DNA from: Macrostomum lignano
Taxonomy: Eukaryota
NCBI GenBank assembly: GCA_002269645.1
Contig: NIVC01003917.1
Coordinates: forward strand, 1-40,869
Direction: 5' to 3'
DNA: 40,869 nucleotides
The notes beneath the pieces were generated by a model. The model did no database searches. It was given only the letters and a program-made list of their open reading frames with translations, and had not been told where the DNA came from. Numbering within the stretch: position 1 is the stretch's first letter; the number at the start of each line of letters is the position of its first letter. Of the stretch, positions 621 through 18,110 are shown one piece after another. The position numbers and the translations under genes are program-made.

Positions 621-1693
621 TGGTGTGATAATCTCAAACTGACAGGTGTGATCATCTCAATCTGAATAGTGTGATAATCTCAATCTGAATAGTGTGATAA
701 TCTCAATCTGAATAGTGTGATAATCTCAATCTGACTGGTGTGATAATCTCAATCTGACTAGTGTGATAATCTCAATCTGACTGGTGTGATAATCTCAATC
801 TGACTAGTGTGATAATCTCAAACTGACAGGTGTGATAATCTCAATCTGACTAGTGTGATAATCTCAATCTGAATAGTGTGATAATCTCAATCTGAATAGT
901 GTGATAATCTCAAACTGACAGGTGTGATAATCTCAATCTGACTAGTGTGATAATCTCAATCTGACAGGTGTGATAATCTCAATCTGAATAGTGTGATAAT
1001 CTCAATCTGAATAGTGTGATAATCTCAATCTGACTAGTGTGATAATCTTAATCTGAATAGTGTGATAATCTCAATCTGACTGTGATAATCTCAATCTGAA
1101 TGGTGTGATAATCTCAATCTGAATAGTGTGATAATCTTAATCTGAATAGTGTGATAATCTCAATCTGACTGTGATAATCTCAATCTGAATGGTGTGATAA
1201 TCTCAATCTGAATAGTGTGATAATCTTAAACTGACAGGTGTGATCATCTCAATCTGAATAGTGTGATAATCTCAATCTGACTGGTGTGATAATCTCAATC
1301 TGACTAGTGTGATAATCTCAAACTGACAGGTGTGATAATCTCAATCTGACTAGTGTGATAATCTCAATCTGACAGGTGTGATAATCTCAATCTGAATAGT
1401 GTGATAATCTCAATCTGAATAGTGTGATAATCTCAATCTGACTAGTGTGATAATCTTAATCTGAATAGTGTGATAATCTCAATCTGACTGTGATAATCTC
1501 AATCTGAATGGTGTGATAATCTCAATCTGAATAGTGTGATAATCTTAAACTGACAGGTGTGATCATCTCAATCTGACTAGTGTGATAATCTCAATCTGAA
1601 TAGTGTGATAATCTCAATCTGACTGGTGTGATAATCTCAATCTGACTAGTGTGATAATCTCAATCTGACTAGCGTGATAATCTCAATCTGACA
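621..1693. repeat. Tandem minisatellite, ~23-bp unit (agtgtgataatctcaatctgaat/act), about 47 copies, in the TENT5 intron
   Basis: Head-to-tail units with only point variants and occasional 20-nt units. The array stops exactly at the Polinton left end. Confidence 0.97.
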
Positions 1694-1883
1694 AGTAGAA
1701 GGCATGAGGGGGCTTTTGGGACAAAATTTTTCACATCCTCCATAATCCCATTAAATCCATCCATATTATCCCTGACAGAATCAGAAAAAAGGGGGGTCGC
1801 ACTCGCTCACAAAACATCCTCCATAATCCCATTAAATCCATCCATATTATCCCTGACAGAATCAGAGCATAACAGGTGTCCTA
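1694..1883 (+). repeat. Left terminal inverted repeat of the Polinton (190 bp, with internal ~50-bp duplicated subunit)
   Basis: Reverse complement of 17189-17378 with about 5 differences. Confidence 0.93.
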
Positions 1884-2206
1884 CTGTTATGCTCTGAGGG
1901 TTTATGCTCTGAGCATAACAGCTCCAAATCCACCCATAACATTTCTAAAACAATCAGAAAAATAATCTGCATTCTTCTCCCCACATTCAATCCGCAACGT
2001 GCTACCACATCCCTAAGACTTTAAATCATCAGCGCAAGGTCCTTACCCATTGAAAAAATATAAATAATTTTATTATTCATTAGTAAGAATTATATATTTA
2101 TTAACAGTTGCACAGCTGATAGGATATGTATCAACTATTACAAGATTATCAAAAATGGTAGAAAAAACAGACACTATGTAGGATCTGAGTTAGAATTCTT
2201 CAACAA

Positions 2207-2630
2207 CATACAGAGCCAGCCTAGCGTTCCTTTGAGCCAGCAGCTAGATTCTCTAACGCCGTTAGAATTTTCTATGTGAAAATTTGGTGTGCCCAAGCTT
2301 ATCTTGCGGGAAACTTTTCACATAGAAAATTCTAACGGCGTTAGAAAATTTCTACCCCCCCTCTATTTAACCATACAGAGCCAGCCTAGCGTTCCTTTGA
2401 GCCAGCAGCTAGATTCTCTAACGCGTTAGAATTTTCTATGTGAAAATTTGGTGTGCCCAAGCTTATCTTGCGGGAAACTTTTCACATAGAAATTTCTAAC
2501 AGCGTTAGAATTTAAAACCCACCGACTGAGTTGCACACAGTACTGAGAAAATTGCTACCCTCCTCTACTTAACTAATCGGCTGTCTCCAGTTGTTGAATC
2601 TTCTCTTTGAAATTCTAACGCGTTAGAAAA
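2207..2630. repeat. 165-bp direct repeat (about 2 copies plus remnant) containing nested palindromes
   Basis: catacagagccagcc starts at 2207 and 2372. Arms 2252-2282 and 2315-2345 are perfect 31-bp inverted repeats. The motif TCTAACG(C)CGTTAGA occurs five times. Confidence 0.9.
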
Positions 2631-2655
2631 ATTCTAAATGAACTGAATTTAAAAA

Positions 2656-3333
2656 TTACACAACTTTCCACGCAGGATCACTGGCCAAAATTTCTTCTAG
2701 AAACTTCATCTTAGAGTTTAGTTCCCTAATTGGCATTGACACCTGTCTCAAGCCTGGGTAGGTAACAGACAGTTTGTACAGACGAATGTACAAATAGCCA
2801 GTTGATTCCTGGATGTTTACATTTTTACACAAATGGGCGAACCGCACTTTAACATCTTGTCCAAAGTTCTCGTTGCGATAAGTTTTTAGCAGCCGCCCAA
2901 CTTCGAGAATCCAATGTAGACCTCCAATTTGAGTCTTCTTGTATTTTGCTAGAGCCGCCTTCACCCTAGTGATGATGTTCTGCTCGCCAGATGGAAGCTG
3001 GTGATCAACAGCGTCCATCAGCTGATCAGCTAGTGTTACGCGGGATGCGTACAACTTCTCCCTGAATATCTGCAGATCCGCCATCTTCTTCTGCAGAGCC
3101 GCCGCCTTCTTCTCTTCGCTACTCACATTTTGCGCTTCATTCGCTGCGGCGATATCATCAGGGGCCATGGCGAAAAACTCGATTGGTAGGTCGCCAGTTT
3201 CTAGACCGAAAAAGGTGGTTAGTTCCTCTCTTCTTCTTGCTTGTAGATGTGACGGAATATCCTGTAAAACTCTTTGTAGCATGGCACAAAGGCCTTGCTT
3301 ATCTGTCAAATGAAGATTCCACTCGACTTCCAT
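2656..3333 (-). CDS. Polinton accessory ORF, 225 aa, helical; C-terminal half loosely resembles DUF3102-type helical/HTH domains
   Basis: Uninterrupted ORF with an aaaATG start. The family assignment (WILEVGRLLKTY...FAHLCKNVNIQESTGYLYIRLY) is by eye only. Confidence 0.6.
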   Translation of the reverse strand: MEVEWNLHLTDKQGLCAMLQRVLQDIPSHLQARRREELTTFFGLETGDLPIEFFAMAPDDIAAANEAQNVSSEEKKAAALQKKMADLQIFREKLYASRVTLADQLMDAVDHQLPSGEQNIITRVKAALAKYKKTQIGGLHWILEVGRLLKTYRNENFGQDVKVRFAHLCKNVNIQESTGYLYIRLYKLSVTYPGLRQVSMPIRELNSKMKFLEEILASDPAWKVV

Positions 3334-16621: not shown

Positions 16622-16625
16622 GAAA

Positions 16626-16865
16626 TCACAATTGTCTAATGATTTCTACAAAGTTATAGTAGCTGTCGTAATCTTTTACATAGGTTACTCCATACTTATG
16701 AAACCAGTGTCTTTGGAGAGCTAGATTAATATTAGGGACATTGATATCAACGTCGGGCCAATATTTTCTCATGTACTCGCTGCATTCAAGTTTGCATCGG
16801 TACTTACTCTTGTAATTAGGCTCGTGCGCTTTGTAATAAGAACCTGGAGAGACAACTGGAAACAT
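16626..16865 (-). CDS. Small Tyr-rich orphan ORF (79 aa)
   Basis: Has the same T-rich/aaaaATG start context as the other viral genes and its stop abuts the mCP stop. No recognised family. Confidence 0.5.
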   Translation of the reverse strand: MFPVVSPGSYYKAHEPNYKSKYRCKLECSEYMRKYWPDVDINVPNINLALQRHWFHKYGVTYVKDYDSYYNFVEIIRQL

Positions 16866-17188
16866 TTTTAGAGAAAATTTAATTTTTTTTCAAAGGGTAA
16901 GGACCCTGGGTTAGGGGATTCAAAGTCTTTGGGATGCGTTGCGAATTGCGAATTGAATGTGTGGAGAAGAATACAGATTGTTTTCTGATTGTTTCGAAGA
17001 TGCTATGGGTGGATGTCAGTGGATTATGTAGGACACCTGCTATGCTCTGATTCTGTCGTGGAGGAAGGAGGATAGGTTAGGAGGATTATGTTCGAAGTTT
17101 TGTAAGCGAGTGCGACACCTGTTATGCTCTGATTCAGGGATAATATGGATGGATTTAATGGGATTATGTTCGAAGTTTTCGGAGCAAC

Positions 17189-17378
17189 TAGGACACCTGT
17201 TATGCTCTGATTCTGTCAGGGATAATATGGATGGATTTAATAGGATTATGGAGGACGTTTTGTGAGCGAGTGCGACCCCCTTTTTTTCTGATTCTGTCGG
17301 GGATAATATGGATGGATTTAATGGGATTATGGAGGATGTGAAAAATTTTGTCCCAGAAGCCCCCTCATGCCTTCTACT
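17189..17378 (-). repeat. Right terminal inverted repeat of the Polinton
   Basis: Reverse complement of 1694-1883. Two further degenerate subunits extend inward to about 17030. Confidence 0.93.
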
Positions 17379-18110
17379 TCCACCACAGGCAGACTTTTGC
17401 TGTAAATGCTCTCCGGAATGGCGAACGTGGCCGGCATGCCGATGACATGGAGCACGATACCCGTCAACACCAGTGTGATGTAGAGCGTCGGCTTGTTGTG
17501 GTCCACAAACATGAGGGCCATGCAGTTCCAAAAGTAGGCACCAATGAGCAGACCAATACTGCACATGAGCAAGAAGCGGTCCTCGAATCTTCCCAACAAG
17601 AAGCGCAGGACAACAAATACAAGAATCACAAGGACACCAGCGCCCAAGTACACCAGACTTGTGTACAGTTCGTCCCAAGCGAAATAGCGGTTGGCAAGCG
17701 GAGGCAATACAGCCTCCAGTGCCATTAGATTAAAGTAGCTAGAGAATGTAATAAAGATCATAGCGAAAGTGTCCAATTTGAAGTACATGCGCAGGTTTTC
17801 GATGCTACACAACTGCTGAACTCGATCGGACACTCCCTGGTCTGTAGTCGGAGGCGGTGGCGGCGGTACTGGCGACGCCTGTTCGGTGGCCACAGACGGC
17901 CTCTGAGTGGGCTGGACCGTTGTGTCTGGCGATTCACGGCCACACCGCGGCGAAATCGGCTCTGGCTCACATTCGGGTAGGCGGCAATGATGGCGATTGT
18001 GTGAATCGCCCACAACAGGGCCATTACTAGTCCCGGGGAGTTGTAAACATCGATGACGAACTGCCGGACTTTGTACCGAATCGGGTGCATCAGTAGCGTC
18101 AGAGCTGGAC
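17379..18110 (-). CDS. MFSD8/CLN7-like MFS transporter, exon 2; truncated at its 3' end by the Polinton (apparent 1-nt loss near 17970)
   Basis: Acceptor cag|GTCCAGCT joins exon 1 in frame (GLIAG-PALTLLMH...YNSPGLVMALLW). Later TM helices read FITFSSYFNLMALEAVLPPL...GMPATFAIPESIYSKSLP, then the sequence runs directly into the TIR. Confidence 0.85.

Follow-up and report, generated by a model that had tools for sequence, protein, structure and literature searches.

Polinton termini anchored in two different genes of Macrostomum lignano: probably two separate insertions, perhaps joined during assembly

Introduction

The Maverick/Polinton elements of vertebrates, as characterized in the available text of PMC8097293, are 12.7–24.6 kb in length, are bordered by terminal inverted repeats (TIRs) of 46–1447 bp whose ends start with AG, and encode an integrase (INT), a protein-primed B-family DNA polymerase (pPolB), an ATPase, a protease and a major capsid protein; intact copies carry a 6-bp target site duplication (TSD). 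The same source also discusses selection against ectopic recombination. In Caenorhabditis elegans, the accessible part of a study of the eri-6/7 locus describes a Polinton-associated inversion and other structural variants, analyzed with long-read assemblies of 17 strains and split reads (10.1101/2024.01.15.575659). The subject of the present analysis is a Polinton of approx. 15.7 kb in contig NIVC01003917.1 of Macrostomum lignano (assembly GCA_002269645.1), of which the entire 40,869-nucleotide stretch (positions 1 to 40,869 of the forward strand), hereafter the window, was examined. The two ends of this element lie in different host genes and lack a TSD, and we argue that they very probably derive from two separate insertions. 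No description of Macrostomum Polintons was found in the open-licence literature, including three supplementary files of PMC5730564 (subscription papers and Repbase being outside this scope).

Termini, flanks and host genes

Judged by its sequence, the element is a member of the Polinton/Maverick family. It extends from position 1694 (AGTAG...) to position 17378 (...CTACT) and has the TIRs with AG-starting ends that are characteristic of this group. The left TIR (1694–1883, plus strand; 190 nt) begins with AGTAG and contains an 81-nt subrepeat, while the right TIR (17189–17378, minus strand) ends with CTACT and is accompanied by additional subterminal 82-nt units which reach back to position 17028. 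When aligned without gaps, the two 190-nt repeats differ at five sites (TIR positions 23, 80, 98, 123 and 137). Four of these differences are transitions in an ordinary sequence context; the remaining one, at position 98, is located at the boundary between an A-run and a G-run and could have arisen from a homopolymer error.

The hexanucleotides adjoining the element, ctgaca on the left (1688–1693) and tccacc on the right (17379–17384), agree in only two of six letters. A search for exact repeats of 4–12 nt, or of 6–12 nt with one mismatch, with the boundaries shifted by up to 6 nt, revealed no TSD, which also rules out a duplication displaced from the presumed termini. Since the 6-bp TSD is lacking, the locus was not classed as one intact insertion. 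A longer TIR of 191 nt, including the outer A/T pair, was rejected, as contigs from public sequencing runs align from 17379; in all four runs analyzed, the alignment of the host contig begins exactly at this position, which independently fixes the right terminus. No third element terminus was found within the window, and there were no matches to the element outside 1694–17378 at an E value of 1e-3. A 10-nt look-alike of the element end (18454–18463) lies within another element, which is palindromic and has an 8-bp TSD of its own; kinship was therefore rejected. The termini are exact on both sides, and both junctions may thus be read as products of the integrase.

The left end of the element is embedded in a gene of the TENT5/FAM46 nucleotidyltransferase family. 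One exon of this gene (1–579, minus strand; PF07984, E 5e-35), which has a single frame break near position 401, continues beyond the start of the window and is preceded by a splice acceptor at 580–581. A protein labelled M. lignano matches 69% of the TENT5 query with 100% identity, in agreement with the species. Next to this acceptor, within the intron, lies an array of 47 units of a 23-bp minisatellite (623–1693; called as 623–1696), whose last unit ends with ctgaca at the element. On the other side, exon 2 of an MFS gene (17379–18113, minus strand; MFS_1 match), with one frame break near 17940, is truncated by the element at 17379, at the second position of a codon. Exon 1 of the same gene (19904–20528, minus strand; MFS_1, E 4e-10) has an approximate 3′ end, next to which a phase-1 donor is located.

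Neither gene is complete. Three M. lignano-type MFS homologues extend approx. 90–110 residues beyond the break point, and tblastn detected no such C-terminal part in the window; likewise, residues 1–103 of TENT5 were not found there by tblastn with the protein model P0004. Full-length TENT5 models, P0004 and P0124, include the absent 103–104 N-terminal residues and differ from the exon of the window in two and five of 193 residues, respectively, while a third model, P0005, begins at the TENT5 exon present in the window. A search for a full-length protein corresponding to the MFS paralogue of the window did not find one: it yielded three matches of 421–2000 aa (38–58% identity) and one of 132–420 aa (42%).

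These results agree with a reading of the sequence alone which preceded this analysis. It had placed the ends of the element in a satellite of a TENT5 intron and in an MFS coding exon, had noted the unlike flanks ctgaca and tccacc without a TSD and TIRs differing at about five of 190 positions, and had reported the 3′ end of MFS and the 5′ part of TENT5 to be absent nearby, all of which was borne out by PF07984, MFS_1, the array, the repeat scan and tblastn. Its coordinates for the element (1688–17384) have to be corrected, because this range, in which the element does reside, takes in both 6-nt flanks.

Empty sites and related copies in public sequencing runs

Of the 24 runs listed, all in the form of Logan contigs, which are simplified graphs according to the available text of PMC12424806, 20 contained part of the region 14400–18400 and 18 at least half of its words; the runs come from eight studies. 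The contigs of four runs (X1, X3, X7 and X14, from at most four studies) were aligned to positions 1620–18440. The coordinates of minus-strand contigs were read in the contig's own orientation, which was checked on one contig overrunning the stretch. The minisatellite was covered by just 74 aligned bases in the four runs, and among the pieces listed from them, none spans the whole stretch or contains either of the junctions between element and host.

In each of the four runs, a contig crosses position 17379 and continues for 617 (X1), 85 (X3), 617 (X7) or 114 (X14) letters that are aligned neither to the window at this place nor to the TIR, which indicates that an uninterrupted MFS copy is present in every one of them. 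At the corresponding place, homologues go on as MFS and not as satellite. The depths of the crossing contigs (270, 51, 23 and 12, in the same order) are at the host level, neighboring host contigs having depths of 227, 32–47 and 17.5 in three of the runs. All four empty-site contigs deviate from the window at positions 17459 (a silent difference) and 17499, where the window has a His that is invariant in the homologues and the contigs have Arg. Both differences are situated no more than 121 nt from the MFS junction and are constant among the runs, whereas three other silent variants of the exon vary among them.

In X14, which we guess to be an RNA run, the alignment of the MFS contig to the window stops at the edge of the exon (18113), as expected of a spliced transcript. 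This run covers all 30 bins of 1620–17378, including the element, and the depth of its long gene contigs is 58–105, against 12 for MFS; coverage of the element could reflect either expression or DNA carry-over.

The core of the element is far more abundant than its host genes. In X7, three listed core contigs had depths of 1018–1235, against 17.5–23.4 for two host contigs, i.e. a ratio of 44–71, which is rough, depth not being equivalent to copy number. The expectation from sequence that the family has several very similar copies is thus confirmed, and the family can be regarded as many-copy. The segment at approx. 2000–3500 was found at only about 3–9 times host depth in three runs, an equally rough estimate for which three pieces of low depth and divergent sequence (records 4, 6 and 20) were disregarded; this suggests that the segment is present in few of the copies. 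Variation within the family is ample: among 15,491 aligned records of X1, 8559 had a likeness of 99% or more, 5109 of 95–99% and 1823 of 90–95%. Four transitions in 190 nt of TIR are therefore what would be expected between two copies.

Several internal joints of the family (15 of 63 are listed), which represent deletions and inversions, recur at host-level depth: 3782/16576 and 16081–16446 in three of the four runs, and 5370–16139 and 14779–15901 in two. This points to the existence of non-autonomous derivatives. Protein model P0130 looks like a near-identical capsid gene without an internal part.

Reliability of the assembled sequence

Frame breaks occur in most of the core genes of the element (at least four open reading frames [ORFs] for the polymerase, three frames for the capsid gene) as well as in the two flanking exons, with one each in TENT5 and MFS exon 2. 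The reading frame is intact in MFS exon 1 and in a 1.2-kb SERBP1-like exon, both of which are located further right. The best run contains 0.72 of the words, with a discordance of approx. 1%. The frame breaks and this discordance fit an unpolished long-read consensus, and the first 18 kb look like such a consensus, thinly covered; the breaks could alternatively be due to decay of disrupted copies. For published assemblies of M. lignano, 1871 and 872 within-contig coverage errors are given in the accessible part of PMC5730564, and one assembly is described as 36% chimeric between subgenomes in that of PMC10733133.

Origin of the join

The unlike flanks, the TIRs that differ as copies of the family do, and the tens of similar copies make it very probable that the two ends come from two separate insertions. 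This had already been proposed in the sequence-only reading, and it emerges as the most likely origin, with uninterrupted MFS and full-length TENT5 copies present elsewhere; as to whether recombination or assembly collapse brought the ends together, the evidence leans to collapse. We infer, with a moderate degree of confidence, that both junctions are real, that they belong to two insertions and that these were joined in silico across the repeat. One insertion would have occurred in the minisatellite of the TENT5 intron and the other in the MFS coding exon, both in the sequenced animals. Each junction would be an ordinary integrase product, its own 6-bp duplication presumably lying at the other end of the respective copy, and the assembler would have passed through the 15.7-kb repeat from one of the loci to the other. 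Such a misjoin is plausible because the family comprises tens of copies diverging by a few percent, and few noisy reads would have spanned the repeat. In our judgement, which is not a computation here or for the alternatives below, it is moderately probable, in view of the depth ratio, the variation of the family, the empty MFS site in four of four runs, the full TENT5 models, the frame breaks and the known faults of the assemblies.

Several observations weigh against this interpretation. A junction may be lost from Logan contigs, and the empty-site contigs are therefore no proof that the insertion allele does not exist; the pattern at 17459 and 17499 would be compatible with fixation of the insertion on a single homeolog, with the short path into the TIR having been removed from the graph. 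The MFS haplotype defined by these two positions looks like a real, distinct copy, and the differences of the TENT5 exon from P0004 (two) and P0124 (five) would fit a third homeolog. Real internal rearrangements of the family were detected in several runs. Moreover, as exons further right are unbroken, decay might account for the frame breaks in both flanking exons.

These points are shared in part by the alternative that the TENT5 and MFS loci were joined on one of the three subgenomes by real ectopic homologous recombination between two Polinton copies, through a deletion if the two were neighbors in the same orientation, or otherwise a translocation, with both genes retained intact in the other subgenomes. 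We consider this rather unlikely, although the haplotypes of the window are distinct in both flanking exons, both genes share the minus strand, an orientation that a deletion between direct copies would also produce, and internal joints at host depth recur (e.g. 3782/16576 in three of four runs). It is also in keeping with the three subgenomes and the inter- and intrachromosomal rearrangements of M. lignano reported in the available part of PMC10733133, and with the inversion at C. elegans eri-6/7 (10.1101/2024.01.15.575659). However, the letters of the window at 17459 and 17499 occur in no contig among those listed from the four runs, and none of these contigs breaks at the MFS junction, although element-internal joints of similar depth survive; the error profile and the documented assembly faults offer a simpler cause. 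The join might also be real if one copy integrated and an adjacent deletion ended exactly at one terminus, or if the two ends were integrated, uncoupled, into two distant sites. One-ended deletions and aberrant two-site integration occur in other DDE elements, and the exactness of both ends is compatible with them, but a freshly integrated genome would be expected, from protein-primed replication, to have near-identical TIRs, and here there are four transitions. Such an origin, which moreover demands a rare event where the many copies ease routes involving two of them, seems to us distinctly improbable.

Least probable of all, in our view, is that the MFS junction is confined to a few reads, along which the assembler left the repeat, and stems from a new insertion of rare or mosaic occurrence or from a chimeric molecule. 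The detection of just the empty site among the listed pieces in all four runs is consistent with this, as is the poorer consensus over 1–18,100 than further right; on the other hand, a library chimera would hardly break exactly at the terminal AGTAG, and two linked differences of the window haplotype lie beside the junction. This explanation overlaps with the favored misassembly of two insertions, from which it differs solely in the frequency of the allele.

Gene content of the element

The predicted genes of the element form an apparently full Polinton set. A retroviral-type integrase is encoded at 4275–5311 (plus strand), with the DDE core in ORF 4275–4889 (rve, 35.7 bits, cut-off 32.6; D, D and E motifs recognizable); ORF 4916–5311 probably represents its C-terminal part. 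Between this gene and the polymerase there is a small ORF (5328–5777, plus strand) with a segment resembling adenovirus protein X (mu) (Adeno_PX, 30.1 bits, cut-off 25). The protein-primed B-family DNA polymerase (5902–9758, plus strand) was assigned from motifs A, B and C and from a match of its exonuclease part to DNA_pol_B_2 (E 2.6e-4, below the cut-off); its pieces had no sequence match in PDB. An endonuclease VII-like segment (7175–8050; Pfam E 7.6e-5, PHROG E 4e-5) was noted in the N-terminal half of this gene. A partial ORF for a putative adenain-type cysteine protease (9918–10202, plus strand) has the His, Asp and Cys motifs and a match to Peptidase_C5 (E 0.0023, below the cut-off), and an A32-type packaging ATPase (11843–12715, minus strand; Pox_A32, 27.1 bits, cut-off 22.8) has Walker A and B motifs.

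The double jelly-roll (DJR) major capsid gene (14455–15739, plus strand) was identified by tblastn with P0128 (64–77% identity). Its pieces in the window gave no direct Pfam match, while 10 of the 11 capsid relatives scanned (out of 35 matches), P0128 among them, passed PF21738. An Atlas look-up of a capsid piece gave a value of 0.97 to unnamed and DJR-tagged clusters, with low recognition, and no locus was found with a capsid piece in viral contigs (13 pattern matches, none confirmed). The two ORFs that follow (15759–16621, plus strand) match no Pfam or PHROG family and, from their position, probably constitute the minor capsid gene. The low-copy accessory segment (2000–3500) contains an ORF of 225 aa (2656–3333, minus strand) with no Pfam or PHROG match, and also a 164-bp tandem duplication and short hairpins. 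A 21-nt pattern of the element terminus had no matches in metagenome and viral contigs.

Other features of the window

The MFS intron contains a 697-nt palindromic element (18442–19138) flanked by an exact 8-bp TSD (gtttctga), presumably related to miniature inverted-repeat elements of the hAT type, which have TSDs of this length; related pieces are located near 22758–22815 and 32473–32588. Further right are a SERBP1/HABP4-like gene with long RGG repeats (24725–29299; PF16174, weak, and PF04774) and, at 35667–38333, four short minus-strand exons separated by minisatellite-filled introns and containing repeats which, by their motif, we take to be tau/MAP2-like.

Significance and comparison with known systems

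Irrespective of how the two ends were joined, M. lignano has a Polinton family of many copies and an apparently complete set of genes. If the join is an artefact, gene neighborhoods across a 15-kb repeat in long-read assemblies of this species are unreliable. If it is real, which we regard only as a tentative possibility, recombination between two Polintons or two-site integration would have removed or exchanged the DNA between MFS and TENT5 on one subgenome and killed one copy of each gene. In that case, the family would actively contribute to the loss of genes in the course of rediploidisation of a young polyploid, with three subgenomes buffering the loss, which would be traceable in a laboratory model. 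Both the MFS intron 1 (at 19904) and the TENT5 intron (at 580) are in phase 1, and the two genes share the minus-strand orientation; because of the common phase, MFS exon 1 could in theory be spliced in frame to the TENT5 exon past the element, giving an MFS-TENT5 product that would lack TENT5 residues 1–103.

Compared with the cases of repeat-induced misjoining in the available parts of PMC5730564 and PMC10733133, the present locus shares the species, with its repeat-rich genome of three subgenomes, within-contig errors and chimeric scaffolds; the error counts given there are general or concern joins between subgenomes, and in those parts relate neither to this locus nor to Polintons. With the vertebrate Polintons, as far as the accessible text of PMC8097293 extends, it has in common the size (15.7 kb), the TIRs (190 nt), the AG-starting ends and the genes for INT, pPolB, ATPase and major capsid, together with a putative protease gene. 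In contrast to them, it lacks the 6-bp TSD, has the end AGTAGA instead of (AG)3 or (AGT)2, and contains broken genes. Judging from depth, the family seems to exceed the highest number of intact copies given there (38), bearing in mind that the ratio does not count intact copies. A further parallel is eri-6/7, where, according to the available portion of 10.1101/2024.01.15.575659, the breakpoints of the rearranged host genes likewise coincide with Polinton ends and ectopic recombination between copies is proposed to be the cause. Given this precedent, a real join would be a new instance of a known process, and M. lignano a second animal in which Polintons have rearranged host genes. The two differ in that one locus is affected in C. 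elegans, whereas in M. lignano two unrelated genes are joined via a whole element, in an arrangement known from one assembly.

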